Assembly: GCA_903845195.1 (NCBI GenBank)
Contig: CAIMWO010000093.1
Location: 1-42,624, forward strand
Direction: 5' to 3'
Source: an uncultured Phycisphaerales bacterium
GTDB taxonomy: Bacteria; Planctomycetota; Phycisphaerae; WQYP01
DNA: 42,624 nt
The first letter of the stretch is position 1, and each line of letters starts with the position of its first letter. A program made the position numbers and the translations under genes. Shown here in pieces: positions 3,420 through 36,733 of the stretch. A model generated the notes under the pieces. The model was not told where the DNA came from. It did not search any database and saw only the letters and a program-made list of their open reading frames with translations.

Positions 3420-7218
<3,799 letters not shown>

Positions 7219-7270
7219 TCATTGCGTCATTGAGCATTGCGTCCTTCCCCATTCTCCCTAAGATGCCCGC

Positions 7271-8548
7271 ATGAACGCCGATTCGCCAACCAATCCGCCG
7301 ACCGAAGGCGGGTGCCATGCCCAGTGGGGCAGGGGCCCCGCTGGGCATGGCACCCTCGCCATCCTCCTCGGCACACTCCTGCTCCTCGTCGGCCTGCGCA
7401 TCTGGCTCACCGCCCGCATCGCCTTCGCCCCCGGCCAGGAAACCGAATCCGCCACCCTCGTCTTCCTCCGCACCCTCGACGCCTACACCGGCTGGGCCGC
7501 CCTCCTCATCCTCTCTCTTGTCGGGTGCCATGCCCAGCGGGGCAGGGGCCCCGGTAGGCATGCGTCGCGCGTCCGCAATGCCCTCATTCCCCTCTCCCTC
7601 CTCGCCGGCATCCTCGCCCTCACCGCCTCGATCTTCCTCTCCGACGTCGTCACCCGCTCCCAACTTGAAATTGCCCTCGCCTTCTGGCTCGCCCTCTGCG
7701 GACTGTTCCTCATTATCCGCCAACTCGTCGCGCTCGCCGCCCACTTCTCCACCGGCCTGAACATCGAACAGCTCTGGCGACTCATCGCCGCCCAATGGAT
7801 ACTCGTCTGGCTCGCCGCCGAAATCTTCCTCCGCATCAAACTCCGCGGCGAAGGCGTCACCGCCAATGAATCCGCGCGCAACATCCTCTTCCTCCTCCCC
7901 ACCGCCTGCGTCCTGCCCAACATCCTCATGGCCCTCGGCATCCGCTGGTGGATCGCCCTCCGCCCTGCGACTCCCCCTCAACCCGCCCCCCACGTCCGCG
8001 CCTGGCTCCTCGCCATGCTCCTGCTCAACCTCGGCGCCGTACTCCTCATGATCCCCCTGCCCTGGCTCGGCATCCCCGGCGCCGCCCTCATGATCGCCGC
8101 CACCCTCCTCTACCTCGCCGGCTTCCGCCGCCCCGGTCTCTGGACCACCCTCGCCTGGACCTCATTCATCCTCGCCCTCCTTCTCCTCGCCGGCCAGCGC
8201 CTCATGCAACTCCACGACACTCCCATTCGCAACGTCTACTCCGCCGCCTGGCGCTATCTCCTCACCGACGGCCTCCTCCTCACCTGGCTTCTCTCCCGCG
8301 GCCTCCACCACCTCCGCACCCACCTCGCCCCCAACCTCCAGATGCGCACCCTCACCCGCCTCATCGCCTTCCTTCTCATCCTCGGAATCCTCACCACCCT
8401 CCTCACACTCCTCGCCGCGATCTCCCACAGCGACGCCCTCCCCTATCTCCTCTACGGCACAATTCCAGAAGCCGCCGCCCTCCTCCTCGCCACCGCAGTA
8501 ACCCTCCGCACCACCCACCTCCTCCGCCACTCAAAAATTGAAAACTGA
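7271..8548 (+). CDS. Polytopic integral membrane protein of unknown function. The start is uncertain.
   Basis: A 425-aa ORF with many hydrophobic TM-like segments and consistent GC3 bias. Its 5' region contains two in-frame copies of the REP-like palindrome, encoded as GCHAQWGRGPAGHG and GCHAQRGRGPGRHA. There is no alternative in-frame ATG/GTG downstream of the repeats before residue ~215. Confidence 0.6.
   Translation: MNADSPTNPPTEGGCHAQWGRGPAGHGTLAILLGTLLLLVGLRIWLTARIAFAPGQETESATLVFLRTLDAYTGWAALLILSLVGCHAQRGRGPGRHASRVRNALIPLSLLAGILALTASIFLSDVVTRSQLEIALAFWLALCGLFLIIRQLVALAAHFSTGLNIEQLWRLIAAQWILVWLAAEIFLRIKLRGEGVTANESARNILFLLPTACVLPNILMALGIRWWIALRPATPPQPAPHVRAWLLAMLLLNLGAVLLMIPLPWLGIPGAALMIAATLLYLAGFRRPGLWTTLAWTSFILALLLLAGQRLMQLHDTPIRNVYSAAWRYLLTDGLLLTWLLSRGLHHLRTHLAPNLQMRTLTRLIAFLLILGILTTLLTLLAAISHSDALPYLLYGTIPEAAALLLATAVTLRTTHLLRHSKIEN
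7310..7355. repeat. REP-like palindromic element, copy A (gggtgccatgcccagtggggcaggggccccgctgggcatggcaccc).
   Basis: A near-perfect ~20-bp-stem inverted repeat seen directly. The same sequence recurs at 7523, 12672 and 14804. Confidence 0.85.
7523..7568. repeat. REP-like palindromic element, copy A' (degenerate right arm ...ccccggtaggcatgcgtcgc).
   Basis: The left arm matches the family consensus while the right arm is diverged. It shares the ggcatgcgtcgc tail with the partial copy at 15524. Confidence 0.75.
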
Positions 8549-8560
8549 AAACTGAAAATT
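8533..8560. repeat. A-rich heptad repeat (caaaaattgaaaactgaaaactgaaaatt) overlapping the stop codon of the membrane-protein gene.
   Basis: Tandem TGAAAAY units in an otherwise GC-rich genome. The gene's TGA stop (8546-8548) lies inside the repeat. Similar elements occur at 12155, 20681, 22899, 28423 and 28711. Confidence 0.8.
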
Positions 8561-8682
8561 ACCGGATCACCCAATCCTCATGCGGATTACGCTCAATACA
8601 CGCGCCGCCCCCCATTCATCGTTCATCGTTCTACATTCATCATTTACCTCCCGCCAGCGCGTAAATGAAGCGGAAACGCGCC

Positions 8683-9615
8683 TCACATCCTCACCACCCC
8701 CACCCTCTGCACCATCTTCACCGTCTCCCCCGCCGCCACCTTCACCGCATCCGCCCCCACATTGCACGTCTCCACGCAGATCATCCCCGGCCATTCCTCA
8801 TCACCAAAATCCGCCATCGCCTTCGACTTGGCCACCCACGGATTCCACACCACCGTATTCGTCGACCCCTCCTTCGCCACCACGATCCGCCGCATCTTGT
8901 CCGGGTCTTCAATCGTCACCGTCCCCGTCGTCCCCACATACACCCGGTCCGTCTCCGCCGTAATCGTCACCGCCCCCTCCTGCGTCTTGACCTTCGATCC
9001 ATCCATCTTGTCCACGTATTTCACCCCCTCCAGCCCCGTCAGTTTTACCCGCTTCACATCCGCCACCGTAAAATACGTGTGCAGCGCTTCCTGATACGCC
9101 ATCGCCTCGCGCCCCGTATTCGTCAATTCCAAACTCATCACGAGCTCCCGCCCGATCGTCACCCGATGCCGCAGCACATACTCCCCCGGCCACTGCTTGC
9201 GCGTCTGATCATCGCTCTTCGTGCTCAGCACCACCGTCACCCCCTCATCCTCCTGCGTCACCGCCTCCAACGTCCACGGCATCAAACGCACAAACCCATG
9301 CCCCGGCGCCGCCTTGTCATCCGCCTTCGGCCCAAACCACGGAAAACAGACGGGCACCCCACCCCGCACCGGCTTCCCATCCGCCCAATAACTCTTCTGA
9401 CTCACCCACAGCACCTCATCCTGCCCCTTCGGACGCCACTCGGCCACATGCCCCCCATGCAGATACACCAACCCCTGCGCCTCCCCCGTCTCGACACGCA
9501 CCGCCGCCAACCCCCCGAGTCCCGCCACCACCTGCACCACTCCCGCAATCCCAAACTTCGTATTCAACATTTCAATCGTGCTCATCATGCCATCCCAAAA
9601 ATAATTTAGAGACAC
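8683..9615 (-). CDS. Aldose 1-epimerase family protein, YeaD-like D-hexose-6-phosphate mutarotase.
   Basis: The motif GGVPVCFPWFG and overall length fit the YeaD / glucose-6-phosphate 1-epimerase family. Confidence 0.75.
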   Translation of the reverse strand: MSLNYFWDGMMSTIEMLNTKFGIAGVVQVVAGLGGLAAVRVETGEAQGLVYLHGGHVAEWRPKGQDEVLWVSQKSYWADGKPVRGGVPVCFPWFGPKADDKAAPGHGFVRLMPWTLEAVTQEDEGVTVVLSTKSDDQTRKQWPGEYVLRHRVTIGRELVMSLELTNTGREAMAYQEALHTYFTVADVKRVKLTGLEGVKYVDKMDGSKVKTQEGAVTITAETDRVYVGTTGTVTIEDPDKMRRIVVAKEGSTNTVVWNPWVAKSKAMADFGDEEWPGMICVETCNVGADAVKVAAGETVKMVQRVGVVRM

Positions 9616-9632
9616 AAACTAGATCGACTTTT

Positions 9633-9703
9633 CTCACAGAGGACTCAGAGAACACAGAGAAATTCAGTATCTTCGCCTCTGTGCTCTCTGTGTCCTCTGT
9701 GAG
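9633..9703. terminator. Long imperfect hairpin. A ~27-bp stem (ctcacagaggactcagagaacacagag / ctctgtgctctctgtgtcctctgtgag) encloses a 17-nt loop.
   Basis: Inverted repeat seen directly. It lies downstream of the NDH-2 gene (minus strand) and upstream of the epimerase start, acting as a terminator and/or regulatory hairpin. Confidence 0.55.
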
Positions 9704-9797
9704 AACCCATTAGCCTCTTGATCTTGGCGCCACGCGCCGCAATCACCCAATTATGCCCCCTCCCGCCCCCCTCCGCCACGTTTCCCGCTTCGCCCAT

Positions 9798-11279
9798 TCA
9801 TCTTCCGCCTCTCTCCCCTTCGTTCCCTGATGCCTTGGTGTTGAATCCCCCCTCGTTCGCCCGCAGCTTCGCCGTCGGATGCTCCGTCCCAAACAGATCC
9901 AACTTCACAATGTCATTCCGAAACAGAATCGCCACCGTCCAATCCATGATCACGCGCAGCCGCCGTTCCCACCGCATCATCTGCATCACGTAATACGTCC
10001 GCCACACCCACCACGCCAGCAGCCCGTACACCTTCACGCCCAGCAGCTTTCCCACCCCGTCATAATGCCCCAGCGACGCCATCGTCCCCAGCGTTTCATA
10101 CCGAAACGCCTGCAACTCCGCATCGCGTCCGCCGCGCTCCACGACAGCCGCAATATTCTTCGCCAGCACCTTCGCCTCGCGCAGCGCGTGCTGCGCCAGC
10201 GGCGGATACGGCTTCCCCTGGGCATCCGGAATCACCGCGCAATCCCCCAGCGCCCACACCTCCGGCCGCGACTTCACCCGCATCGACCCCTCCACCATCG
10301 CCCGCCCATTCCGCGCCTTCTCCAGCGGCAACTCCCCCAGCAACGGATTCGCCCCCAACCCCGCCGCCAGCAAAATCGTCTCACTCTCAATCCCCGTCTC
10401 TTCCCCCGCTCCGTCATTTCGCGTTTCGCCTTTCATGTTTCGCGTTTCCACCACCACTTTCCCCGCCTCAATCCGCTTCACCGGCGTATTCGTCAGAATC
10501 GACACGCCCCGCTTCCACAAAACCTCCGCCGCATATTCCGCCATGTCCCGCTCCATCTCCGGCAGCACCTTGTCGCTCGCTTCCACCAGCACAAACCGCA
10601 ACCACTCCCGGCTGATCCGCGGATAGCTCCGCAACAAATTATCCGTAAACTCCGTCAGCTCGCCCATCAACTCCACGCCCACCAGCCCCGCACCAATCAC
10701 CACAAACGTCAGCAACTTCTTCCGCCGCTCCGGGTCCTCCTCCACATCCGCCTGCTCGAACAAATCGATGATCCGGTTCCGCAGAAAAATCGCATCCCGC
10801 AGTGTCTTGAATCCCAGCGCATGCTCGCTCCCCGGTATCAATTTCCGGTTCGTCACCCCGCCCAGCGCCAGCACCAGCTGGTCGTACTCCAATTCCCAAA
10901 TCCCCTCCCGCGGCCCATGTCGTGCCAAAATTTTCCGCCCCTCCAGATCGATCCGCTCCACCGTCGCCTCGACGAACCGCGCCTTCTTGAACAGCGGCCG
11001 GATCGGATTGACCGCGTGCCGCGGCTCCAGCACGCCGCTCCCCGCCTCAAACAGTAGGGGGGTCATCAAGAAATAATTCTCGCGCGATACCAACGTGATC
11101 TCCACCCCCGCATGCCTGCGGAAAATCCGGTCCAGATGATACGCCGTGTATATGCCTCCAAACCCGCCCCCCAGGATCAGCACCCGTTGCGCCTTCCGCG
11201 ACCGCTCCATTCGCGGCGCCCTGCGTTCCGCCTCAGCCCCAATGATCGAAGTCGTCTGAACCTCATTCCGAGCAGCCAT
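9798..11279 (-). CDS. ndh: Type II NADH dehydrogenase (NDH-2), a FAD/NAD-binding pyridine nucleotide-disulfide oxidoreductase. The true start is possibly the internal Met (MERSRKAQRVLILGGGFGG).
   Basis: N-terminal dinucleotide-binding motif RVLILGGGFGG, a second Rossmann VVIGAGLVGVE, and C-terminal amphipathic membrane-anchor helices. It carries an in-frame ETRNMKGETRNDG insert encoded by heptamer repeats at 10412-10448. Confidence 0.85.
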   Translation of the reverse strand: MAARNEVQTTSIIGAEAERRAPRMERSRKAQRVLILGGGFGGIYTAYHLDRIFRRHAGVEITLVSRENYFLMTPLLFEAGSGVLEPRHAVNPIRPLFKKARFVEATVERIDLEGRKILARHGPREGIWELEYDQLVLALGGVTNRKLIPGSEHALGFKTLRDAIFLRNRIIDLFEQADVEEDPERRKKLLTFVVIGAGLVGVELMGELTEFTDNLLRSYPRISREWLRFVLVEASDKVLPEMERDMAEYAAEVLWKRGVSILTNTPVKRIEAGKVVVETRNMKGETRNDGAGEETGIESETILLAAGLGANPLLGELPLEKARNGRAMVEGSMRVKSRPEVWALGDCAVIPDAQGKPYPPLAQHALREAKVLAKNIAAVVERGGRDAELQAFRYETLGTMASLGHYDGVGKLLGVKVYGLLAWWVWRTYYVMQMMRWERRLRVIMDWTVAILFRNDIVKLDLFGTEHPTAKLRANEGGFNTKASGNEGERGGR

Positions 11280-11503
11280 GACCCACTCCTTTACATCGTA
11301 CCTTTATTCACAATGTTACGCGTCGGCCCTCCCAAAGTCCGCACCTTCTTGTCCAGAATTCAAATATTCTAGCCTCGCCGCTACCCTCCAAAACCATCGA
11401 TTTCCCCCCAAATACCGGTTACAATGCTCCCGCCCGTGACGCAATCGCTTGGGTACGTACCCCTGTTCCTGCGTCTAACCGCTTTCCCGCACAGGAGTTA
11501 TCC

Positions 11504-11986
11504 ATGCAGGTCGCCAAGGACGCCGTCGTCTCTATCGATTACACCCTCACCGGCCCCGATGGCGCCGTCATCGACTCCAGCAGCGGACGCGAACCCCTCC
11601 CTTACCTCCACGGCGCCGGCAATATCATCCCCGGCCTCGAAAAAGCCCTCGAAGGTAAATCCGTTGGCGAAAACATCAAAGTCACCGTCTCTCCCGAAGA
11701 AGGCTACGGCCAGCTCGATCCCAAAGCCGTCCAGGCCGTCCCCAAGTCCGCCTTCCAGGGCGTCCCCGAAATCAAAATCGGCATGCAGTTCCGCTCCCAA
11801 GGCCAGCATGGCATGCAAGTCGTCACCGTCACCAAAATCGAAAACGACACCATCACCGTCGACGGCAACCACCCCCTCGCCGGTGTCACCCTCAACTTCG
11901 ATGTCACCATCAAAGAAATCCGCGCCGCCTCCAAGGAAGAACTCGATCACGGCCACGTCCACGGCGCCGGCGGCCACCACCACTGA
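11504..11986 (+). CDS. slyD: FKBP-type peptidyl-prolyl cis-trans isomerase SlyD with a His-rich C-terminal tail.
   Basis: An FKBP domain carrying an IF (insert-in-flap) chaperone domain, and a C-terminal tail HGHVHGAGGHHH. An AGGAG RBS lies upstream. Confidence 0.9.
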   Translation: MQVAKDAVVSIDYTLTGPDGAVIDSSSGREPLPYLHGAGNIIPGLEKALEGKSVGENIKVTVSPEEGYGQLDPKAVQAVPKSAFQGVPEIKIGMQFRSQGQHGMQVVTVTKIENDTITVDGNHPLAGVTLNFDVTIKEIRAASKEELDHGHVHGAGGHHH

Positions 11987-12154
11987 GATCGCGCGCGAGA
12001 AACCTCTACAACCGCGACCGTCAGGGAGCGCCAATCTCGCCGCCAACCATGTTGGATGGTTCGCCAGCTCTCAAGGCCCAAATTGCTTGAACCCTGAATA
12101 ATCGATAGGTCGCAATGCGCGCATAAAAAAAGCGCGAAGCATCACTTCCCGCCT

Positions 12155-12189
12155 TGAAAATTGATAATTGTAAATTGAAAATTGAAACT
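12155..12189. repeat. A-rich heptad repeat (ttgaaaattgataattgtaaattgaaaattgaaact) abutting the stop of atpC.
   Basis: Same family as the 8533 element. It sits in the convergent intergenic region between slyD and atpC. Confidence 0.8.
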
Positions 12190-12581
12190 CAGGCCAACAC
12201 TTGCCGCATCGCCTGCACCCGCGCCTGAATCGCCGCCCGCTTCTCCATCGCCGGCAGATCCGTCCCGGTGACCGTCTCCAACTTCGCCTCTTCCGCCGTG
12301 ATCAGCGCCGCCGTGATCTTGTCTTCCGGAATCGCTTCGTTCGTCAATATCGTCAGCACATCATCTTTCATCTGTGCATATCCGCCCGCCACCACATACC
12401 GCTGCGTCCCCTCCGCCCCGTCCAGCCGCAGCACGCCCGTCCCCAACTTCGCCAGCAGCGGCGCCCGCTGATGCATAATCCCCACCAACCCATCAAATGC
12501 CGGCACCTGCGCACCGGTCACGTCCGCCTCAAACAGGATCGATTCTGGGGTAATCACGCTGGCTTTAAACGCTGTGGCCAT
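12189..12581 (-). CDS. atpC: F0F1 ATP synthase epsilon subunit, orphan (no other atp genes adjacent).
   Basis: N-terminal beta-sandwich motifs (VITPE, PAFDG..GIM..RAPLL, AGGYAQMKDDVLTILT) and a C-terminal helical hairpin. The upstream neighbour is a 2-hydroxyacid dehydrogenase, not atpD. Confidence 0.8.
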   Translation of the reverse strand: MATAFKASVITPESILFEADVTGAQVPAFDGLVGIMHQRAPLLAKLGTGVLRLDGAEGTQRYVVAGGYAQMKDDVLTILTNEAIPEDKITAALITAEEAKLETVTGTDLPAMEKRAAIQARVQAMRQVLA

Positions 12582-12671
12582 AGTTCCTCCGAACTTCTTT
12601 TCAGATCCGCCAGTCTAGCCCATCCCCCCCGGTCATTCAAACGCTGCTATTAGGAGAATAGGTGAAATACC

Positions 12672-12712
12672 GGGTGCCATGCCCAGTGGGGCAGGGGCCC
12701 CGCTGGGCATGC
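12672..12712. repeat. REP-like palindromic element, copy B.
   Basis: Contains gggtgccatgcccagtggggcaggggccccgctgggcatgcc. It is intergenic between atpC and the dehydrogenase gene. Confidence 0.85.
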
Positions 12713-12751
12713 CTCGTTGGGCGGGCCTCGCTGCAATGCTCAGCCACAAGA

Positions 12752-13762
12752 TTACGCCAGCATCGCCGCCTTCTCCCGCGAAACGCTCCACTCCAACCGC
12801 TCGCCCCGCAGAAACCGCCCCAGCTCCCCAATCGCCGACTCCCCCATCCGCTTGCTCTCCGATTCGCACGAACCCGCCACGTGCGGCGTCAAAAACACAT
12901 TCCCCAACTCGTATAATGCCGACCCCGCCTCCGGCGGCTCCGGATACGTCACATCCAGCACCGCCACCAGATCCGGCCGCTGCCGCAACACCTCGATCAT
13001 CTCCGCCTCCCGCACGATTGCTCCGCGCGACGTGTTGATAAACGTCGCCCCCTTCTTCATCGCCGCAAAATGCGCCCCGGTGATCATGCCCACTGTCTGC
13101 GGCAGCCACGGCGTATGCAGACTCACCACATCCGACCGCCCGAACAACTCCTCCAACCCCACCAGTTCCACCTTCAACTCCCGCGCCACCTCCGGCTTCA
13201 CAAATGGATCGTACGCCACCACCTTCAATTCATACGCCTGCAGCATCCGCGCCACCCGCTGCCCGATCATCCCCAGGCTGATCAACCCGACCGTGCTCGT
13301 CGGCATCACCCCCGCCATCGGCAACCGCCCGGGCCGCTCGGTCCCCTTCGCCCCATGCATCCGCCGCATGTGCATCCAGGTCTGCTTCATGCTCAGCACG
13401 ATTTGCGCCACCGTGTACTCCGCCACCGGTACCGCATTCATCGCCCACGCCGATGTCACAATCAGACCCCGCTCCCAAAATGCATCGCTGACAAATCCGC
13501 GAATCGTCCCGCCCGCATAAAACACCCCCTTCAGCCGCGGCGCATGCGCCAGCATCGCCGCATCCAGCTTCGGCATGCCCCACGCCCCGATCACCACATC
13601 CGCCTCCCGCAATATCTCCGGATTCGCCTGCACCATCTCGGCCGTCTGCGGCGGTGCGTAAAACTCCACCATCTCGCCCAGCCGCCCCTGCTGCTCCGCC
13701 GTAAATACGTGATTCCACATCCCGCCCATACCCACAAATAAGCCCTTCATCCGTGCACTCAT
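12752..13762 (-). CDS. D-isomer-specific 2-hydroxyacid dehydrogenase family protein (NAD-binding).
   Basis: NAD-binding motif GLISLGMIGQRVARML, catalytic region with His (LTPHVAGS) and overall family architecture. Confidence 0.85.
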   Translation of the reverse strand: MSARMKGLFVGMGGMWNHVFTAEQQGRLGEMVEFYAPPQTAEMVQANPEILREADVVIGAWGMPKLDAAMLAHAPRLKGVFYAGGTIRGFVSDAFWERGLIVTSAWAMNAVPVAEYTVAQIVLSMKQTWMHMRRMHGAKGTERPGRLPMAGVMPTSTVGLISLGMIGQRVARMLQAYELKVVAYDPFVKPEVARELKVELVGLEELFGRSDVVSLHTPWLPQTVGMITGAHFAAMKKGATFINTSRGAIVREAEMIEVLRQRPDLVAVLDVTYPEPPEAGSALYELGNVFLTPHVAGSCESESKRMGESAIGELGRFLRGERLEWSVSREKAAMLA

Positions 13763-13945
13763 CTGATTCGTCCTTACTACACGCCATGGCGGTGGGCATA
13801 TACATGATCTTCAGGTTCCGCCAACTCGGTCCCTATCTTACTCCCATGAACCCAATTCGTCGGCGCACATGCATCGTGCCCGGCTGAATCCTATACTGAT
13901 CCAGCGGCCTCTTTTCCGCGCCGCACCTCCGGAGACCCTCTGGCC

Positions 13946-14779
13946 ATGTTTTTCCAGCCCCACATCCAGGAACAGGAAGTCCCCTGCCAGCGCCTCGCCC
14001 CCGCCTTCGACGGCCTATCCATCCTCCACCTCTCTGACCTCCACATCACACGCTGGACCCAGCAACTCGCCCGCTGGCATTCGCTCCTGGCGAAAATCCA
14101 ACCCCACGTCCTCGTCATCACCGGTGACCTCGGCCACCGCTCCTGGCGCTGGAAAGAATCCTTCATCAACCTCCAACGCCTCCTCGAACCCCTCACCCCG
14201 CCCCTCGGCACCTTCTTCATCCTCGGCAATCATGACTCCGCCAAACTCGGACCCGCCCTCGCCCAAACCACCGACTCCGCCGGCCACCCCCGCATCCTCC
14301 TCAAAAACCAGGCCGCCTTCTTCTCTGCCTCCCGCAAAAAAATCAGCGTCGAGCTGCCCGATGAAACTTCTGACTCCCGATCCGCCGCCCCCGTCTCGTC
14401 AAAAACTCCCCGCCTCGCCCTTATCGGCCTGCACCAGCACCGCCGCATCGATACCGACATCCCCTCCGCCATGCGCCACGTCCGCCCCGCAGACTTCAAA
14501 CTCATGCTCCTCCACTACCCCGACCTCGTCCACCCCGCCATCGCCGCCGGCGCCGACGTCTGCCTCGCAGGCCACACCCACGGCGGACAGATCTGCTGGC
14601 CCGACGGCAAACCTCTCTTCCGCCAGGACACCCTCGACCCCAACCAATGCACCGGCATGCACCGCATCAACGGCGCCTGGATGATCGTCAACCGCGGCCT
14701 CGGCGTCGCCGGTCTCCGCGTCCGCCTCTTCTGCCCCCCCGAAGCCCTCCTCCTCACCCTCCGCTCCACCAAACCCTAA
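13946..14779 (+). CDS. Metallophosphoesterase (calcineurin-like phosphoesterase).
   Basis: Motifs LHLSDLH, GDLGHRS, GNHD and GHTHGGQ match calcineurin-like phosphoesterase signatures. Confidence 0.8.
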   Translation: MFFQPHIQEQEVPCQRLAPAFDGLSILHLSDLHITRWTQQLARWHSLLAKIQPHVLVITGDLGHRSWRWKESFINLQRLLEPLTPPLGTFFILGNHDSAKLGPALAQTTDSAGHPRILLKNQAAFFSASRKKISVELPDETSDSRSAAPVSSKTPRLALIGLHQHRRIDTDIPSAMRHVRPADFKLMLLHYPDLVHPAIAAGADVCLAGHTHGGQICWPDGKPLFRQDTLDPNQCTGMHRINGAWMIVNRGLGVAGLRVRLFCPPEALLLTLRSTKP

Positions 14780-14803
14780 ACGCTACGTCACGCATGAACT
14801 TCC

Positions 14804-14843
14804 GGGTGCCATGCCCAGTGGGGCAGGGGCCCCGCTGGGCATG
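14804..14843. repeat. REP-like palindromic element, copy C.
   Basis: Contains gggtgccatgcccagtggggcaggggccccgctgggcatg. It is intergenic between convergent genes. Confidence 0.85.
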
Positions 14844-14999
14844 TTTGTCGCTATTAACCGCAAGATGGGAACCCGCGGCGCAACGGACCAGCACGCTCAA
14901 ACGGTCCCATCGATCCCGCGCCAACGTCGCCACTATCCTTGTCTCGGCGCTCGTCCATGTCATCCCGCGCAGGCCTATCTTCGATCAAGACCGTCTTCT

Positions 15000-15443
15000 T
15001 CAGCCCTTCCGCTCTTTCGCCGCCGCATTGAGCAACTTTTGTACCGCCCTCGCCTGCGGGTCTTTTCGGCGGGCAGCACGGTCGATCGCCGTCAGTTGCA
15101 TCCATCCCGCGATCGTCGGATCAGCCCCCGCGCGGATCAGCCGCTCCGCCATCGCCGGCGAGCACTTGCCAGCGCAGCTGCCCAGCGGCGTATTGCCAAT
15201 GACGCGCTCATCATGCGCATTGACGTTGGCTCCCGCCTCGATCAGTCGGTCGACGACTGCCGAGTGCTCACCATCGGCCGCGTAATGCAGCGTCGTCTTG
15301 CCCAGCTCATCGAAGCGGTTGACCGGATAACCCCGCGTCAGAAGGTCTTCCACCTTCGCCAGATCCCCGTGTTGCGCAGCAGAGTGCAACTGCTCCCGCT
15401 GAAACTGTGCCGCCAAGTCATCTTTCATCGTTAACTCGCTCAT
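15000..15443 (-). CDS. Ankyrin-repeat protein.
   Basis: Three or four ANK repeats (TTLHYAADGEHSAVVDRLIEAGANVNAHDE..., GNTPLGSCAGKCSPAMAERLIRAGADPT). Confidence 0.75.
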   Translation of the reverse strand: MSELTMKDDLAAQFQREQLHSAAQHGDLAKVEDLLTRGYPVNRFDELGKTTLHYAADGEHSAVVDRLIEAGANVNAHDERVIGNTPLGSCAGKCSPAMAERLIRAGADPTIAGWMQLTAIDRAARRKDPQARAVQKLLNAAAKERKG

Positions 15444-15523
15444 ACGGTGAATACTCGAATGCTTCGTAACGTACTACTATTCGCGTACGCTGGTCAACGC
15501 CCACCATTCCCGCGTGTCATACG

Positions 15524-15552
15524 GGGTACAGGCCCCCTCAGGCATGCGTCGC
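15524..15552. repeat. Partial (right-half) copy of the REP-like element (gggtacaggccccctcaggcatgcgtcgc).
   Basis: Matches the diverged right arm of copy A' at 7540-7568, including the ggcatgcgtcgc tail. Confidence 0.5.
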
Positions 15553-15701
15553 ACCCTCCACCCATCACGCCTGATCACCCGCCGATGCAGTGGACCGAGC
15601 CGGCGCCTAAGATCCTGGTGGTTCGAGAGCCGGTGGGGTGCCGGTGCCGCCACTGATCGGCGTTACGTGAGGCGGTCAGAGCGCACAGAAAGGAGATTGC
15701 G

Positions 15702-16046
15702 ATGGGAAATGAACAGGCCGCACCTGAGACGAAAGGTGTCACGGTGGAGCTGCTGGCAGCGCTTGACCTTGGCCCTGAAATCGAGGGCATGGCAGGGCGC
15801 CAATTTCGCATGCGGTTGGTGACCATCAAACCTGGTGGCGTTTTCGGCCCGGTTCACGACCATAAAGACCGGCCGGGCATGGTCTACATACTGCAAGGAA
15901 CGATCACTGATCATCGAAATGGAGTGGCCAAGGACTATGGGCCGGGAGTGGGCTGGCCCGAGGATAGGAACACCACGCACTGGCTTGAGAACAGAGGAAC
16001 AACGCCGGCGGTGGAGATCTCGGTCGATATTGTCAGAGCAACCTGA
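15702..16046 (+). CDS. Cupin-domain protein.
   Basis: Contains cupin motifs such as PVHDHKDRPGMVYILQG. A strong AGGAGA RBS lies upstream. Confidence 0.75.
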   Translation: MGNEQAAPETKGVTVELLAALDLGPEIEGMAGRQFRMRLVTIKPGGVFGPVHDHKDRPGMVYILQGTITDHRNGVAKDYGPGVGWPEDRNTTHWLENRGTTPAVEISVDIVRAT

Positions 16047-16104
16047 GCCCGACACTTGATCGACATCCCATATGGGCCAAGTCCGCTCCGCCTGATGAGC
16101 CTGA

Positions 16105-17472
16105 TCACACCTCCACCGTCTGCCCGCGCTCCGCAATTGTCACACTCCCAAACCCCGCCGCACCCAGCGCCTTGCGATGGGCCTCCGCCGCCTCGATTTC
16201 CCCATGCACCAGGTACACCTTCGCACCCTTCAGCGGCCGCGTGTAATTCACCAGCTCCTCCCCGTCCGCATGGGCGCTCAATCCGTCGATCTGCTCCACA
16301 TGACACCGCAGCGGAATCATGTCCCCCAAAATCGGCACCTCCGGCAAGCGATCATGGATCTTCCGCCCCAGCGTTCCCGCCCCCTGGTATCCCGCCAGCA
16401 GCACCGTGCACCGCGCATCCCGCAAATGATGCTTCAAATGATGCAATATCCGTCCGCCTTCACACATCCCGCTGCTCGCAATAATCACCAGCGGCCCCGA
16501 CATCTGATTCAGCTTCATGCTCTCCTGCACGCTCGCCGTGTACGTGAGAAACTCCTCATCGAACGGCTCAAACATTGCCCGCGTCTCATCGTCCCACAGA
16601 TTTTCATACGTCCGGAACACCTCCGTCAGCCGCGTCGCCAGCGGAGAATCCACAAACACCCGCAACTTCGCCGGTATCTTTCCCTGACTTCGCAACTCGT
16701 TAATCTGCTGCACCATCGTCTGCGTCCGTCCCAGCGCAAACGCCGGAATCATCAGGATCCCACCCCGCGCCGCCGTCTCGCCGATGATCCGCGCCATCGC
16801 CTTGGGCACATCCGCCACCGGCCCATGCTTCCTCCCGCCATACGTGCATTCCGATATCACCGCGTTCGCCTGCGTAAATGGAATCGGATCCTCCAGAATC
16901 GGCGCATCCGGCCGCCCCACGTCGCCCGTGAACACCAGCGACCGCCCGCTGGCCGTCTCCACGATCCGTATCGCCGCGCTCCCCAGCACGTGCCCCGCCT
17001 CGTGCAATTCCACCGTGAACCCGCCAAAATCCCGCGGCTGCGCATACTCCAGCGGCGCAAACAATCCGATCGTCTTCTGCGCATCCTCCTGCGTGTACAG
17101 CGGCTCGATCTTCCCCTGCCAGCTCCTCTGCGTCTTCTGATTCAAATACGCCGCATCTTCTTCCTGGATCTTCGCCGAATCCATCAGCATCAATGCCGAC
17201 AATGCCGCCGTCGCCTTCGTGCAGTAAATCTTCCCCTTAAACCCCTGCTTCACCAGGTTTGGCAAATTCCCCACATGATCCATGTGCCCATGCGACAGCA
17301 GCACCATCTCCACCGTCTTCGGATCGAAATCAAATTTCGTATTGATCTGCCGCGCCAGCGCCCGCGGTCCCTGGAACAACCCGCAATCCAACACGATCCG
17401 CCGCCCCCCAATCTGCACCTCATGCAAACTCCCCGTCACCGTCCGGCACGCCCCGTGAAATACAATCTTCAT
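16105..17472 (-). CDS. MBL-fold metallo-hydrolase of the beta-CASP family (RNA-processing RNase J/CPSF-like).
   Basis: HxHxDH motif (LLSHGHMDHVGN), a beta-CASP domain and a C-terminal RMMBL region. The protein is 455 aa. Confidence 0.85.
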   Translation of the reverse strand: MKIVFHGACRTVTGSLHEVQIGGRRIVLDCGLFQGPRALARQINTKFDFDPKTVEMVLLSHGHMDHVGNLPNLVKQGFKGKIYCTKATAALSALMLMDSAKIQEEDAAYLNQKTQRSWQGKIEPLYTQEDAQKTIGLFAPLEYAQPRDFGGFTVELHEAGHVLGSAAIRIVETASGRSLVFTGDVGRPDAPILEDPIPFTQANAVISECTYGGRKHGPVADVPKAMARIIGETAARGGILMIPAFALGRTQTMVQQINELRSQGKIPAKLRVFVDSPLATRLTEVFRTYENLWDDETRAMFEPFDEEFLTYTASVQESMKLNQMSGPLVIIASSGMCEGGRILHHLKHHLRDARCTVLLAGYQGAGTLGRKIHDRLPEVPILGDMIPLRCHVEQIDGLSAHADGEELVNYTRPLKGAKVYLVHGEIEAAEAHRKALGAAGFGSVTIAERGQTVEV

Positions 17473-19822: not shown

Positions 19823-20695
19823 ATGAATCCCCCACCCCTCTCCCCCCCCCTCTCCCTCGGCCTCTGCTCCTGGTCCACCCGCCAGATCGAAGAGCCCGCA
19901 CTCCGCGCCGCCTTCCAACCCCTCGGCATCAACATCCTCCACCTCGCCCTCAGCCCCCTGGCCGAACTCGACCCCTCCGAACAAACCCACGCCCTCGCCC
20001 AGTTCCGCGCCTCGCCCCTCCAAATCTCCGCCGGCATGATCAGCTTCCCCGGTGAAGATTACCGCACCCTCGCCACCATCCGCGCCACCGGCGGCCTCGT
20101 CCCCGATGACCTCTTCCCCCAACGCCACGCCCTCCTCACCGCCTGCGCCCACCTCGCCCATCAACTCAACCTCCGCCTCGTCTCCACCCACGTCGGCTTC
20201 ATCCCCGCCCAGTCCGACCGCCCCAACTTCGACCGCCTCCGCGACCGCCTCGCATCCATCGCCGACCAGTTCGCCGCTCTCAACCTCACCCTCCTCTTCG
20301 AAACCGGACAGGAAACCGCCGATACCCTCGCCGACTTCCTCACCGTCCTCAACCGCCCTAACGTCGGCGTAAACTTCGACCCCGCCAACATGATCCTCTA
20401 CGGCAAAGGCGACCCCGTCGCCGCCATCCGCACCCTCGCCCCCTGGATCCAGCACGTCCACGCCAAAGACGCCCGCCTCGTCTCACCTCCCCCCAACGAT
20501 CCCACTGCCTGGCGCGCCCACGAAGCTCCACTCGGCCAAGGCGACGCCCACCTCCCCCAAGTCCTCACCGCCCTCAAACAAATCCACTACCCCGGCCCCC
20601 TCATCATCGAACGCGAAGCCACCTCCTCCCGCACCCAGGAAATCCTCGCCGACCTCACCTACCTCCGCTCCCTCATCCCAAAAAATGAAAATTGA
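19823..20695 (+). CDS. Sugar phosphate isomerase/epimerase (xylose isomerase-like TIM barrel).
   Basis: TIM-barrel AP-endonuclease-2 / xylose-isomerase-like motifs (LLFETGQE, VNFDPANM, HAKD). An AGGAG RBS lies upstream. Confidence 0.8.
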   Translation: MNPPPLSPPLSLGLCSWSTRQIEEPALRAAFQPLGINILHLALSPLAELDPSEQTHALAQFRASPLQISAGMISFPGEDYRTLATIRATGGLVPDDLFPQRHALLTACAHLAHQLNLRLVSTHVGFIPAQSDRPNFDRLRDRLASIADQFAALNLTLLFETGQETADTLADFLTVLNRPNVGVNFDPANMILYGKGDPVAAIRTLAPWIQHVHAKDARLVSPPPNDPTAWRAHEAPLGQGDAHLPQVLTALKQIHYPGPLIIEREATSSRTQEILADLTYLRSLIPKNEN

Positions 20696-20718
20696 AAATT
20701 GATAATTGAAAATTATTC
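20681..20718. repeat. A-rich heptad repeat (aaaaatgaaaattgaaaattgataattgaaaatt) containing the stop codon of the isomerase gene.
   Basis: Same TGAAAAY family. The TGA at 20693-20695 is embedded in it. Confidence 0.8.
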
Positions 20719-22898: not shown

Positions 22899-22977
22899 TT
22901 GAAAATTGAAAACTGAAAATTGGAACCCGCCCCTCCACCCTCCTTCTGAATTCCGAACTCTGAATTCTGAATTCGCC
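22899..22977. repeat. A-rich heptad repeat (ttgaaaattgaaaactgaaaattgg) followed by a ctgaattc x3 repeat, in a convergent intergenic region.
   Basis: The TGAAAAY family element sits 20 nt after the GH35 stop. Tandem GAATTC-containing octamers lie at 22944-22977. Confidence 0.75.
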
Positions 22978-27161: not shown

Positions 27162-27974
27162 ATGAATCAGAACCCCCTCACGCCAACGGTAACCAACTGG
27201 GACGAACAGCGTCGAAGCTTCGATCGGGTGGCGGAGGCCTACGACACGTTCCGGCCTGGTTATCCTCGCGAGCTCATTGCGGCCATCGTCGCGGCCGCCG
27301 CACTCCGGGCCGAGTCGCGGCTCCTGGAAATTGGCAGCGGAACGGGCAAGGCTACCGCGGAGTTTGCGTCGCTGGGCTGCTCGATTTTGGGCGTAGAGCC
27401 CGGACCCGAACTGGCCGCGGTGGCGGCACGGCGTCTGGCAGCTTTTCCACGAGTGACCTTTCAGCAGGCCCGCTTTGAAGACTGCACGCTGCCACCGGAG
27501 CCTTTTGACCTGGTATTCTCAGCGCAGGCGTTTCACTGGGTTACGCCCGAGGTTGGTCTGACCAAGGCCGCCGAAGCTCTGAAGCCGGGCGGCTGGCTGG
27601 CGTTGTTCTGGAACCGCTATCCGGGCATGGTGGGAGCCTTGGCGCAGGAGATCCAAGAGGCTTATGACGGCTTGGGCGTGGCGTCGATGGTAACGCCCGA
27701 TTACGCACAGAAGATGGAGCGCGACATTCGCGAGCGGCAGGAACACCTGGAGCGCTCGGGGCTGTTCTCCGGGCTCCAAGTGTTGCGCTTCGCATGGTCC
27801 GTCCAGTACACCGCGCAGCAATACCTCGGGCTGTTGGGCACATACTCGGACCACATCACGCTGCCCGCCACGCAGCGGGCCGCGTTGTTCGCGGGCGTCG
27901 CGGCCGCCATTGAACGCCACGGCGGGTTAATCGACCGGCCTTATGTGGCTGTGCTGCACTTGGCGCAGCGGTGA
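27162..27974 (+). CDS. Class I SAM-dependent methyltransferase.
   Basis: SAM-binding motif LLEIGSGTGKAT, acidic loop ILGVEPGPEL and motif post-I LKPGGWLALFW. Confidence 0.85.
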   Translation: MNQNPLTPTVTNWDEQRRSFDRVAEAYDTFRPGYPRELIAAIVAAAALRAESRLLEIGSGTGKATAEFASLGCSILGVEPGPELAAVAARRLAAFPRVTFQQARFEDCTLPPEPFDLVFSAQAFHWVTPEVGLTKAAEALKPGGWLALFWNRYPGMVGALAQEIQEAYDGLGVASMVTPDYAQKMERDIRERQEHLERSGLFSGLQVLRFAWSVQYTAQQYLGLLGTYSDHITLPATQRAALFAGVAAAIERHGGLIDRPYVAVLHLAQR

Positions 27975-27992
27975 GCGCGGTGCGCCGGGTGC

Positions 27993-28027
27993 CATGGTCT
28001 TGGCACTATCTCGGTGCCAAGACCATG
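27993..28027. terminator. Perfect 14-bp stem hairpin (catggtcttggcac-tatctcg-gtgccaagaccatg) 19 nt after the methyltransferase stop.
   Basis: Inverted repeat seen directly. No U-tract follows, so it is rho-independent-like at best. Confidence 0.5.
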
Positions 28028-28289: not shown

Positions 28290-28830
28290 AACACCTACCG
28301 CCTCTCCCCTCCACACTTGCGCGCACAAACATGGTCCTCCACCTCTTCTATAGAAGGACGAACCACGGTCCACGGCCCACGCCCGGAGCCCCCTATGCGA
28401 TGCCAGCATCCATTCTCCCCCCGTGAAAATTGGAAATTGATAATTGAAAATTTCCCCCATCGTCCGTCGTGCCACCGTGTCGTCGTGGTTCCCTTCCGCC
28501 TCGCGCAAAAAACCTGCGCATCTCTCTCTGAAAAGATCCCCACCTCGCCGAAGCCGAGGAACCAGCAACACTTACGAAAACAAAACGAAAAAGGACCTCT
28601 GCGCAGGTGCGCAAAAAACCTTGCGCATCTCCCCCTGAAAATCTGCGCAGGTGCGCAACCCCCCACGGCCCACGGACCACGACCCACGGCCAACGAACCC
28701 CCTTCCCCCCATGAAAATTGTAAAGTGAAAATTGAAAATTCGCTCCCCATTCGTGTCCATTTGTGGTCCGTCCCCGTCGTGCCGTCGTGCCGTCGCGGCG
28801 TCGCCGTTCAATCCGATGTCTCTCAAAACT
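28290..28830. repeat. Complex non-coding repeat region. Two tandem imperfect copies of a ~250-bp composite unit: (CCACGGCC)n, then a TGAAAAY A-rich block, then a gtcgtgcc(r)tcgtg block. Between them is an internal duplicated unit gcgcaaaaaacctgcgcatctc...ctgaaaa / ctgcgcaggtgcgcaa.
   Basis: Direct repeats seen on manual alignment: 28367-28385 vs 28660-28700; 28423-28453 vs 28711-28740; 28460-28495 vs 28745-28800; 28500-28535 vs 28605-28640; 28596-28613 vs 28643-28660. Confidence 0.7.
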
Positions 28831-31740: not shown

Positions 31741-31827
31741 GGAGGCGTGGCAGAGCGGTTTATTGCACCGGTCTTGAAAACCGGAGAGGGCGCAAGTCCT
31801 CCGTGGGTTCGAATCCTACCGCCTCCG
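31741..31827 (+). tRNA. tRNA-Ser (anticodon UGA), class II with a long variable arm.
   Basis: Manual fold: acceptor GGAGGCG/CGCCTCC; D-arm; anticodon stem CCGGT/ACCGG with loop CTTGAAA (anticodon TGA); long variable arm; T-arm GGTTCGAATCC; discriminator G. CCA is not encoded. Confidence 0.85.
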
Positions 31828-31831
31828 CTTA

Positions 31832-31864
31832 AAACCCTTGGGAATCCAGCGTTCCCAAGGGTTT
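31832..31864. terminator. Perfect 13-bp hairpin (aaacccttgggaa-tccagcg-ttcccaagggttt) immediately 3' of tRNA-Ser, followed by a T-rich tract.
   Basis: Inverted repeat seen directly. The tail ttacgtgttttct follows it. Confidence 0.65.
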
Positions 31865-31968
31865 ACGTGTTTTCTGGGGCAAACACTTCTGTCCACCTCG
31901 TTCCGCCCAATTCCGCCCAAAGCCACCGCAAAAGGCAAAGCAAAAGGCAAAGTGAAACCCACGAAAAC

Positions 31969-33333
31969 TCAGGTGCTGCCTCCTTGGCTTCCCGGTTTCG
32001 GGTTCACGCCGGGCGGCTTCTGGGAAGCGTCCTCAGAACCAACTGGGGGCTTGGTCACGCCCGGCACATTCGGCAATCCCGACAAAGCCTTACTCGTATC
32101 GAGCATACCGGCGTGGGCGTAACGTCCCAGCGTCAGGGTAGGCGTGGAATGCCGTGCCAACTCCTGTGCAGCCTTCATGGGCGCCCCTGAACTCACCAGA
32201 CGTGTAATGAACGTATGACGCAGGGCATGGAAGTCCGCGACGCACTGCTGACCGTCCCGGTAAGCCAGAAAATCCAGCTTCTGACGACGTGCCAATTCCT
32301 CGGCATCTCCGTTGGCTTCTTTGAGCCAAGCCACGCGTGCCACCAACAGATCATGGCGGATCAGCTTGGCCACATGCCACTTCGCGGGCATCGTGGCGAA
32401 GACGCTCTTGCCTTTAGCCTTCGTCGCCAGCCACGCAGCCACCGCAGAAGCAAGAGACGGTTGGATAGGCTGCACATCCGTACGCCGGTGTTTGCTATAG
32501 GCTGCCGCCACGGTGAGTGTCGGTGGCGTGGTATCCAAATTGAAACTCTCCGGAGTCAAGCTGCGAAGCTCACTGGACCGAAAACCTGTGCCGAGTGCCA
32601 AACGGTAGAGCATGCCCCGGTCGGAACCAGAGATGCCCAGAAAAACTTCTCCTTGATCCGCAACAGCCAGCAGACGTTCGACTTCTTCCTCTGACAAGGC
32701 TCTACGGTCATGTCGGCGATCCGTCTTGACGTTAAATCCCTTGAGATGGGCCAATGGATCCTCAGTGGCCCGCCGATCCGATACCAGCCACCGCGTAAAC
32801 GCCTTTATGGCTCGCAGAAAGTGATTCAGGGTCTGGAGGCTCAGCCCCGCGGTTTCGTCATCGCCTTTCCCTATCCGGTCCAAGGCAACCTGTACCCGCG
32901 ACGGAGTAAGGTCACGCAAGTAAACAGTCTTGGACAACTGAAGGATTCGCCTGGCGTCCACGAAGTATCGTTCGGCATGGTACGGAGTGTTTCCCTTGGC
33001 CAGCAGCACCTGCTTCCATTCGGTGAGATGATCTGCCAGCGGTCTTCCCGCACCGGCAAAACGTCCTTCGAGCAGGCCAAGGTCCGCCAGTTTCTTCTGG
33101 ATGTCGGAGCCTTGTGATTGCATCCACTTCACCAGTGAGGCATCGGGCGTCTGACCACTGGCCAAAGAACTCATCAGCTCTTCCATCCGCCGACCAAATG
33201 CTTCGGTTTGTTTCAGGCTGGTGAAGCCGGGCAGGCGACATCGCCTCCGCTTCCATTTGAAATCGATCCACCAGGTGGGGGATTCAATCTTCGTCCCCTC
33301 CTTGGTGGTGTACTTGGGTTTATAGGTTCTCAT
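31969..33333 (-). CDS. Tyrosine-type site-specific recombinase / phage integrase.
   Basis: C-terminal catalytic R..HxxR..Y region (HALRHTFITRLVSSGAPMKAAQELARHSTPTLTLGRYAHA). An N-terminal SAM-like/arm-binding region is present. The start ATG overlaps the stop of the upstream AlpA-like gene (ATGA). Confidence 0.9.
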   Translation of the reverse strand: MRTYKPKYTTKEGTKIESPTWWIDFKWKRRRCRLPGFTSLKQTEAFGRRMEELMSSLASGQTPDASLVKWMQSQGSDIQKKLADLGLLEGRFAGAGRPLADHLTEWKQVLLAKGNTPYHAERYFVDARRILQLSKTVYLRDLTPSRVQVALDRIGKGDDETAGLSLQTLNHFLRAIKAFTRWLVSDRRATEDPLAHLKGFNVKTDRRHDRRALSEEEVERLLAVADQGEVFLGISGSDRGMLYRLALGTGFRSSELRSLTPESFNLDTTPPTLTVAAAYSKHRRTDVQPIQPSLASAVAAWLATKAKGKSVFATMPAKWHVAKLIRHDLLVARVAWLKEANGDAEELARRQKLDFLAYRDGQQCVADFHALRHTFITRLVSSGAPMKAAQELARHSTPTLTLGRYAHAGMLDTSKALSGLPNVPGVTKPPVGSEDASQKPPGVNPKPGSQGGST

Positions 33334-33752
33334 GAAGTCACCTTTTCATTCTGGGGCGTGCTTCGGCCATGCAGGGCATGGCGGAACGACGCAGTGTGTG
33401 TTGTGTTCTTAAGGACTTCCCATTGCTCACGGGCAGGTGCTCCCGCCGAAAGCCAGGCGCGAAGTTCCCCCACCGGCCAGACGCACCGGGCACCCAGCTT
33501 GACGGGCGCAGGAATGCGTCCGGAACTGTCGAGTTCATGCCAGAGAGACTTGCCGATACCGATGAGGGCAGCGGCGTCATCGGCTCCCACCGCTAGGGGT
33601 TCCACCGGTGTCATGCAGATGCGTGAGCGCGCAGAACTTCCCCTCCGCTCTGTAGGCGGTTTTCTGTCGGGGCTCGTAATGGGTTCAGGCGTCTTAGGCT
33701 GGCCAGCGTGGGTCAGCAGATCAGGAGTGAGGCCACCGGTTTCCTTCGCCAT
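33330..33752 (-). CDS. AlpA/excisionase-like HTH DNA-binding protein. The start is uncertain; an alternative Met lies at 33614.
   Basis: An HTH_17/MerR-like motif (AAALIGIGKSLWHELDSSGRIPAPVKLGARCVWPVGELRAWL) sits directly upstream of the integrase and is translationally coupled to it. Confidence 0.6.
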   Translation of the reverse strand: MAKETGGLTPDLLTHAGQPKTPEPITSPDRKPPTERRGSSARSRICMTPVEPLAVGADDAAALIGIGKSLWHELDSSGRIPAPVKLGARCVWPVGELRAWLSAGAPAREQWEVLKNTTHTASFRHALHGRSTPQNEKVTS

Positions 33753-34504
33753 TAAGCGTGAACCGGCAGCCGCGGGACAAGAGTAACCATGAGGTCACCT
33801 TCCGGCCTTGGGGCCATGCCGCGCAGTATCCCTCGAACCAGATTATCACATCGGTTTTCATCGGGAATCCTGCGAGGCGGGAGTGGTTTAGGTCTTAACA
33901 ACGAACGCCGTAGGGGTGGGACGGCAGGCCCTGACTGATGGCTCCAGTGTAGCGCGCCCTCGCACGCTGTCAAGGGTCAACGGGGTCCATCAGGGAGCCC
34001 TAGCCTTACGCTCGGCTCCTCTATTCAGTTGTACCCGAAACGCGTTAAAGCGCAAGTGAATTCTGGACATTTTTAGAAGATTTTCACTGGTGCAGGGGCG
34101 CCCCTGGGCCCCCGGCGATCCCAGCTCCAGCATCCGACAGATCAACGCGGAACTTATTGTCAGACGTGCAAAGATCCCAGGGGTGTTACCATGGCGGTGG
34201 GGATGATGGTTCGGCGATTAAGAATTCGAGGACGTAACTGTGCGCAGCAAAATGACTTACGAACGATATGGTGGAAATACAGCAAAAGCTCGATTTATTG
34301 ACTAGCGCTCGTCCGCGTTTCGGGTAAAATGAACTATGTGAGGCCGCGATCCGAATATCGCGGATGTTCCGGCGGATGCCTTCCTTTGCCGCCGGTTAAG
34401 AATAGCCCATTTATTAAGACCAATACGAGTTCGGCCATTAGGCCGCACCGCCGAAGGTACCCCGTGATCGGATCCCTCCGTGGTGATGTATACGCGAGGT
34501 CCCT

Positions 34505-36178: not shown

Positions 36179-36478
36179 CGTTGGCAGAAGCCATGAGCAT
36201 CGGCCCATATAAGGCTCACCAGGCGCCCTGGGAGGCGCGGAGCGCGCATCTGAGCGTTCGATCGACCTGGAAGCCGTCCGAAGGATGGAACGCGCTCCAG
36301 CGCGCCGGGAGCGCGTGGGAACCTTGAGGACCGAATCGTCCGTCTGGTGTATTTCCTCCAAAGCCCGGCTCAATGGGAAATTTCTTCTTGCGCTTGAACC
36401 ATGTTGGCGCTACATTGGAGTGAGACCAGCGATTTTGATCGCTTTCAGTCCAAAGCCAACCATGAATGGGAGAAAACC

Positions 36479-36733
36479 ATGAGTACCCAAGATCCTCTTC
36501 TTATCCTTCCGGATCGGGAAGCCTTCGACCCCACCCAGAATCTCATTCCGCCCTGGATGGCCAACGATGACGGGCTCCGCACTATACCCCTTCACGAGAT
36601 GGCACGGGTTTATCATGTCGGGATGAGCACCCTACGGAGGCACATGCGCCAGGGACGACTCAAGGCGATCAGGGTGGGTCGCTATAAGTGCGTCACGCTG
36701 GGGAATCTCCGGGAGTATTTGGGGGCTGACTGA
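36479..36733 (+). CDS. Excisionase-family HTH DNA-binding protein. Start set at the internal Met with a GGGAGA RBS.
   Basis: The region LHEMARVYHVGMSTLRRHMRQGRLKAIRVGRYKCVTLGNLREYL matches the excisionase/MerR-type HTH. Confidence 0.6.
   Translation: MSTQDPLLILPDREAFDPTQNLIPPWMANDDGLRTIPLHEMARVYHVGMSTLRRHMRQGRLKAIRVGRYKCVTLGNLREYLGAD

Follow-up and report, generated by a model that had tools for sequence, protein, structure and literature searches.

Strand-polar palindromic repeats dispersed in an uncultured Phycisphaerae planctomycete: a probable REP family mobilised in trans by a REP-associated tyrosine transposase

Positions 1 to 42,624, the complete length of contig CAIMWO010000093.1 (assembly GCA_903845195.1, uncultured Phycisphaerales bacterium; this whole stretch of 42.6 kb is called the window below) contain several copies of a short hairpin-forming repeat, which is described here together with its relatives on other contigs as a candidate family of repetitive extragenic palindromic (REP) elements. 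A preliminary description of this DNA had listed four full copies of a near-perfect hairpin-forming 40-mer, and both search and folding confirm them: the 40-mer was found with no mismatches at 7310, 12672 and 14804 and with three mismatches at 7523, in all cases on the + strand (exact and three-mismatch search). In 100 dinucleotide-preserving shuffles there was no match to the 40-mer; by chance, not even one copy would be expected. Alignment of the copies with their flanks defined a conserved unit of 41 nt, which begins one C before the 40-mer and ends in ...GGGCATG; the flanks suggest C|GGG...CATG|TT as the limits of insertion. This unit, CGGGTGCCATGCCCAGTGGGGCAGGGGCCCCGCTGGGCATG (type A), is identical at 7309, 12671 and 14803 and carries three changes at 7522.

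The first two copies are located in frame within the coding sequence (CDS) 7271..8548 (+). Copy 1 (7309..7355, +; codons 14-28) has a 'double-foot' form, CGGGTGCC-hairpin-GGCACCC, positions 7310-7355 making up a full palindrome of 46 nt with the 3' end ...CATGGCACCC; copy 2 (7522..7562, +; codons 85-98) bears three stem-weakening substitutions. The other two show 100% identity to the consensus. Copy 3 (12671..12711, +) lies between two genes of the - strand, 40 nt past the stop codon of the 2-hydroxyacid dehydrogenase gene (12752-13762, -) and 89 nt ahead of the start of atpC (12581). Copy 4 (14803..14843, +) is enclosed by convergent genes: the metallophosphoesterase gene (13946-14779, +) has its stop codon 23 nt before the copy, and that of the ankyrin gene (15000-15443, -) is 156 nt away. 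The suggestion that most copies occupy intergenic spacers thus holds for 12672 and 14804 and fails for 7310 and 7523, two of the four full copies in the window being intragenic.

The open reading frame (ORF) 7271-8548 is a real gene. It has 33 homologues (best identity 46%, E = 7e-66), the segment between the two REPs retains in-frame codon-position GC values (0.69/0.47/0.91) equal to those in the remainder of the CDS, and no in-frame start codon is present between 7271 and 7928. The product is a multi-pass membrane protein from a small conserved family with no Pfam match. In the alignment of homologues, the first REP falls in a variable N-terminal tail, and the second one in a variable basic loop after the second transmembrane segment. 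In-frame REPs within genes have already been described (PMC3733652, PMC6006769). The recurrent peptides noticed earlier in the conceptual translations do originate from the repeat, the MPSGAGAPLGMAP peptides being its translation in frame +2.

A partial copy that had been proposed at 15524 is real and corresponds to 15511..15546 (+), a decayed copy of a sister subtype (type B; CGCGTGTCATAC-GGGGTACAGGCCCC-CTCAGGCATG) with a 5-nt deletion, situated between the divergent ankyrin and cupin genes. The tetranucleotide CGTC follows type B copies (7563-7566 and 15547-15550). One more sister REP, absent from the preliminary list, was found at 27986..28027 (+), 12 nt after the stop codon of the gene 27162-27974 (+). 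This type C element keeps the foot CGGGTGCC and has a different hairpin of 14 bp, CATGGTCTTGGCAC-TATCTCG-GTGCCAAGACCATG, unrelated to that of type A. Type C also occurs in locus L005 beside type A and type B copies, all of them head-to-tail.

The type A unit consists of an unpaired 5' foot, (C)GGGTGC, and a GC-rich stem of 15 bp, CATGCCCAGTGGGGC-AGGG-GCCCCGCTGGGCATG, with one G.T wobble on the top strand and a C.A mismatch on the bottom strand. The predicted folding energy of the single-stranded DNA (ssDNA) is -19.3 kcal/mol for the top strand (z = -5.3) and -17.2 kcal/mol for the bottom strand; in the folds of both strands the 7-nt foot CGGGTGC remains unpaired 5' of the hairpin. For RNA, the predicted energies of the repeat copies range from -35 to -56 kcal/mol. 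The stem covaries between subfamilies: when 14 distinct variants of types A and B were compared, pairing was found in 94% of stem cells, compared with 30-50% when the partner column is slid, and compensatory double changes were observed in three stem pairs. In this respect the repeat agrees with REPs, short (about 21-65 nt) imperfect palindromes whose single strand folds into a stem-loop. No Rfam family was found at the repeats at gathering thresholds, the sole match being a tRNA.

Scans of genomes and metagenomes, made in the spirit of the pattern search proposed in the preliminary description, showed that the repeat is dispersed over unrelated contigs and not confined to one locus. The only match among 185,579 species-representative genomes was in an uncultured Phycisphaerales metagenome-assembled genome (MAG), so these representatives do not include the host genome; a scan of metagenomes gave 27 loci with the 41-mer, and a scan of viral contigs for the repeat gave none. 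With weaker copies, sought by blastn-short, added and duplicates removed by flank, there are at least 34 independent sites with unrelated flanks, from several metagenomes and one Phycisphaerales MAG, most of them 100% identical over 41 nt. Dispersed copies occur singly or in clusters of head-to-tail units (L005, L008, the pair 7309/7522 of the window and the L040 arrays), and inverted partner copies were found only around transposase genes, described below. Other assemblies of the same population hold the same REP copies; some of them break off within it (positions 12693, 12698 and 7329 of the window), and many JGI contigs begin or end in it. The occurrence of four copies within 7.5 kb and the numerous contigs ending in the repeat could suggest a local duplication or an assembly or adaptor artefact of this contig. 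However, breaks of contigs in the repeat are the usual behaviour of a multi-copy repeat; independent JGI, ENA and NCBI assemblies contain it between unrelated flanks, a conserved gene reads through it in frame, and it flanks transposase genes. Such an origin, refuted by the dispersal scans, can be set aside with near certainty. Same-population assemblies L036-L038 align with the left end of the window only down to position 298, which suggests that 1-297 is either a variant of the strain or the product of a misjoin at the end of the contig.

The search for an associated transposase, also proposed earlier, was successful on related contigs, where genes of REP-associated tyrosine transposases (RAYTs) are flanked by inverted copies of the repeat. 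RAYT genes with inverted REPs, an arrangement known as a REPtron, were found in L022, L028, L033/L034 and L041 and, with sister-type REPs, in L035; sister types also accompany the RAYTs of L040 and L041. In L022, a REP on the + strand (1058-1098) is followed by the ORF (1182-1766) and two REPs on the - strand (1809-1851 and 1903-1945); in L033, the order is the same, with REP(+) at 289-329, the ORF at 406-981 and REP(-) at 1017-1057. L028 has the same layout as L022, its RAYT ORF containing an in-frame TAA. The product of the bracketed RAYT gene is 190 aa long. The L022 ORF matches the NCBIfam equivalog NF047646 (REP_Tyr_transpos, 'REP-associated tyrosine transposase') with E = 1.2e-29 and 103.1 bits (cutoff 80), and the protein has 4446 homologues at E <= 1e-10, several of which are named REP-associated tyrosine transposase in Planctomycetota, e.g., Rubinisphaera. 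The ORF of L033 (P0006) is 65% identical to the L022 RAYT. In the PDB it matches only TnpA-REP of E. coli (4ER8), and the HUH (HVH/HMH) and YIxxNP (YIHKNP/YIYINP) motifs of the two are aligned; its contigs belong to the ENA study series that also yielded the window population and resemble the window in composition (GC 62%, skew -0.30). P0110 and P0013 are RAYTs of other lineages with sister REPs. The RAYTs of L022, L028 and L033 are 63-65% identical to each other, and the type A copies flanking them are at least 97% identical; that is, the REP DNA unit is far better conserved than the presumed enzyme.

Two other loci combine RAYT sequences with REPs. In L006, a RAYT remnant is located between two REPs. 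In L040 (2600-4030), a RAYT is embedded in tandem REP arrays of at least 12 copies with 57- and 90-nt spacing; all array copies, whether before or after the gene, point the same way, in contrast to the REPtrons of other loci with their inverted copies.

The sister REPs of RAYTs from this clade (58-68% identity) keep the foot GGGTGCC and alter the hairpin: CATGCCTTACGGGGC...GCCCCGTCAGGCATG in L035 (type B), CACGGCCAGTGGGG...CCCCAACTGGCCGTG in the arrays of L040 and CATGCCCACG...CGTGGGCATG in L041. At the hairpin foot, canonical REPs carry the conserved 5' tetranucleotide GT[AG]G (PMC6006769), and the invariant unpaired foot of our family occupies the position of this guide. The variant GTGG was observed only in the RAYT-flanking copies of L033/L034 and in one L035 copy.

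The DNA that carries these repeats is strongly asymmetric. GC skew in the window between 1 and 31.7 kb ranges from -0.2 to -0.49, and the + strand skew calculated from third codon positions lies between -0.63 and -0.81 in most genes, whichever strand is coding, e.g., -0.81 in slyD (+) and -0.79 in the epimerase gene (-). As this third-position (GC3) skew is alike for genes of both strands, it is a property of the strand and not an effect of transcription. To our knowledge, the asymmetry as a whole is far stronger than the skews of cultured bacteria. Skew magnitudes in related loci are 0.2-0.44, and extreme strand asymmetry was also seen in L003, L005, L013-L015, L021, L024, L033 and L040. Genes show no detectable strand bias (51 vs. 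44, as counted by a strand-symmetric GC-frame heuristic, which is imperfect). An amino-acid-composition gene finder trained on the window was rejected: under the extreme skew, its calls were all - strand ORFs, and slyD and the phosphoesterase were overlooked. For the latter gene (13946-14779; Pfam Metallophos, E = 2e-12), public calls in L029-L032 give two small ORFs on the opposite strand instead; gene finders are probably misled here by the compositional skew of the strands.

The orientation of REPs follows this asymmetry: the strand bearing the foot is the C-rich strand in 22 of the 23 dispersed type A copies (two-sided binomial p = 5.7e-6, or 7.6e-5 with one vote per contig) and in all six dispersed sister-type sites. 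Three type A sites have positive flank skew, namely the inverted partners downstream of the RAYTs in L028 and L033 and a dispersed copy in L002; both positive-skew sister-type copies are inverted partners inside the L035 REPtron. Because the element itself is G-rich on the foot strand (19 G vs. 12 C), neither compositional drift nor biased detection explains this polarity. It suggests that either the gain or loss of REPs is tied to replication or one orientation is selected. No report of REP orientation bias relative to replication was found in a literature search, while involvement of the lagging-strand template or the replication fork has only been hypothesised, for E. coli BIMEs (bacterial interspersed mosaic elements; PMC3333891). 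Our family may perhaps be the first one almost uniformly polar with respect to the replication strands, in a background of no gene-strand bias and GC3 skew of about 0.7, a suggestion that we make tentatively.

The polarity also bears on the possibility that the hairpins are host regulatory signals, that is, terminators or stabilisers of mRNA 3' ends selected at gene ends, mobility being irrelevant. The positions of the copies 12671, 14803 and 27986, 12-40 nt past stop codons, agree with such a role, and so does the short T-rich tail that many copies have after the hairpin (of 26 copies, 17 have T at +1 and 14 have it at +2); moreover, REPs have been reported to stabilise mRNA and to terminate transcription (PMC6006769, PMC3733652). 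However, the tail is only TT(T), and no REP copy was among the terminator-like sites of the region 6900-16200 (at least five T in eight bases), which led us to reject the class of intrinsic terminators. Two copies are inside a CDS, and one relic is between divergent genes; the orientation of the copies tracks the composition of the strand instead of the direction of the neighbouring genes. Finally, a copying mechanism is needed, because the 41-nt sequence is identical at unrelated loci and linked to RAYTs. The terminator role envisaged in the preliminary description is thus not supported, and regulatory signals are an improbable explanation of the family as a whole, although a secondary role in mRNA after insertion is possible.

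Polarity as strong as this (22 of 23) could also mean that the family was co-opted as a strand-polar architecture signal, guiding an FtsK-type translocase or marking replichore polarity in the manner of FtsK-orienting polar sequences (KOPS) or architecture-imparting sequences (AIMS). Such sequences are heavily biased to one replication strand, switch strands at the origin and terminus and recur often along the chromosome; the strand bias is observed in our family. The high conservation of the 41-mer around divergent RAYTs suggests constraint on the DNA itself, and the loop region contains GGGCAGGG, which we take to fit the E. coli KOPS consensus GGGNAGGG. On the other hand, by the E. coli rule this octamer on the C-rich strand is in the non-permissive orientation, and no binding protein is linked to it. 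The density of copies looks low and patchy (four in 7.5 kb here; one exact match per contig in several contigs of >100 kb), and polarity is kept by types B and C, the latter having no octamer. We regard such a function as very unlikely.

The repeat is very probably a REP family of an uncultured Phycisphaerae planctomycete, mobilised in trans by a RAYT, and, the exact sequence of the foot apart, it largely agrees with REP/RAYT systems in structure and genetic organisation. Typical REPs have many copies per genome, chiefly outside genes; here, the copies are known from at least 34 sites on unrelated contigs, and two of the four full ones in the window are intragenic. The earlier characterisation of the elements as resembling REP, BIME or miniature inverted-repeat transposable elements (MITEs) stands for REPs, given the dispersal and the RAYT with inverted copies, and falls for MITEs, as 26 aligned flanks have no target-site duplication and the associated gene is of the HUH-Y1 type, whereas MITEs have terminal inverted repeats, such duplications and a DDE transposase relative. 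Two further classes were considered and rejected. REPINs have an inverted doublet as the repeated unit, whereas the dispersed copies here are single or head-to-tail. Insertion sequences (IS) of the IS200/IS605 family have their transposase gene within a multi-copy unit bounded by left and right hairpins, whereas the unit repeated here is the 41-nt hairpin alone, and the best profile is that of a REP-type transposase.

Several observations weigh against the assignment to a RAYT-mobilised REP family. First, no RAYT was detected by tblastn in the 42.6-kb window, and the REPtron contigs nearest to it in composition (L033/L034; P0006, P0005) come from other samples of the study series. Second, the Pfam Y1_Tnp match of the L022 protein is below the cutoff (20.1 bits vs. 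23). Third, nearly all dispersed copies have the foot GTGC where canonical REPs have GT[AG]G. Fourth, no empty site was found that would prove insertion, such a comparison being precluded by the distance of the relatives of the flanking genes: identity is 58% for the 2-hydroxyacid dehydrogenase and at most 62% for LigA, whose best named relatives are Phycisphaerae/Phycisphaerales MAGs (58-62%). The last point concerns polarity. If the G-rich strand is taken as the leading one, as is customary, the foot strand would be on the leading-strand template, which is opposite to the IS200/IS605 rule (PMC3333891), and therefore coupling to replication would not be a simple copy of the IS200/IS605 model.

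If the family is indeed mobilised by a RAYT, the following mechanism can be proposed by analogy with the biochemistry of E. coli TnpA-REP. Formation of the hairpin would require single-stranded DNA. Foot and hairpin would be recognised together by a RAYT (TnpA-REP, an HUH/Tyr ssDNA transposase), whose single gene is predicted to lie elsewhere in the genome between inverted REPs. The enzyme would then cut and rejoin the strand, thereby copying or removing REP units in trans. The strong polarity may reflect gain or loss of units at the replication fork, either through preferential insertion in one orientation or through preferential excision of the opposite one, in which case only the 'protected' copies would survive.

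REP/RAYT systems are well known, and finding one in uncultured Phycisphaerae mainly aids annotation, as the REP accounts for spurious peptides that recur in translations, for breaks in contigs and for wrongly called ORFs. Further work would best address the polarity of the copies and the host's extreme skew. Should the polarity arise from a RAYT acting on fork-exposed single strands, it would provide a natural genomic read-out of replication-coupled gain and loss of REPs; given a closed genome, the polarity of single REP units could make fork involvement testable by genomics alone. The in-frame REPs in a conserved membrane protein and the constancy of the 41-mer around RAYTs of about 64% identity mark the DNA unit as strongly constrained.

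Other repeats and a putative island were noted in the window. A 29-nt inverted repeat (9631-9705; 93% complementary, 17-nt spacer) between the aldose-epimerase and NDH-2 genes is unrelated to REPs. Intergenic heptamer microsatellites of 3-6 copies, among them (TTGAAAA)n, (AAAACTG)n and (AAAATAG)n, are located at 8534-8558, 12154-12187, 17485-17523/17547-17576, 20681-20714, 22899-22922, 22944-22974, 28424-28452 and 28712-28740; one pair of them forms a 29-nt inverted repeat, and in L028 and L033 REPs have short tandem repeats of a similar, A-rich kind next to them. At the right end, tRNA-Ser(TGA) (31741-31828) is followed by a tyrosine integrase gene (31969-33333, -). From the integrase to the contig end, GC skew is about 0 and GC content 52-56%; the genes encode a helix-turn-helix protein, a CcbP-like calcium-binding protein and a protein with a weak, sub-threshold DksA_N match, and no REP copies were found in 31741-42624. 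This region looks like a recently integrated island.

Among known systems, the closest parallel is with REP/BIME elements and TnpA-REP (4ER8) of E. coli, which share with our family short GC-rich hairpins, an unpaired 5' tetranucleotide foot, dispersal over many sites and a single HUH-Tyr transposase gene bracketed by inverted REPs. The differences are in the foot (GTGC, or GTGG beside some RAYTs, vs. GTAG), in the longer and nearly perfect stem of 15 bp, and in the arrangement of the copies, which are strand-polar and single or head-to-tail here, not in inverted pairs as in BIMEs. The IS200/IS605 elements IS608 and ISDra2 likewise combine ssDNA hairpins, a 5' guide read by a Y1 HUH transposase and a replication-related orientation bias; unlike them, our family has the transposase outside the repeated unit, and its polarity appears opposite, the C-rich strand being the one that bears the foot. 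Rickettsia palindromic elements (RPEs), palindromic repeats of 100-150 bp, also lie in frame inside protein genes, and we know of no RAYT associated with them; the insertions in our gene are just 41-46 nt long and fall in the variable N-terminal tail and in a loop that is variable, too. With the GTAG- and CGTC-tagged REP superfamilies (PMC3733652) our family shares a tagged stem-loop; the tag of type A is neither GTAG nor CGTC. Tagged REPs have already been reported in the Planctomycetes-Verrucomicrobia-Chlamydiae (PVC) superphylum, and sites between unidirectional and convergent genes are known (PMC3733652, PMC6006769); the copy 7309-7355 resembles the 'double-foot' REPs of TnpA-Y1 subclass 2.4 (PMC6006769). 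Finally, the REPINs of Pseudomonas fluorescens SBW25 (Bertels and Rainey, 2011, PMC3116915) are RAYT-associated REPs for which mobilisation in trans is assumed, as it is for our family, but the REPIN, an inverted REP doublet, is the proposed replicating unit there, whereas the Phycisphaerae elements occur as single units in one orientation.

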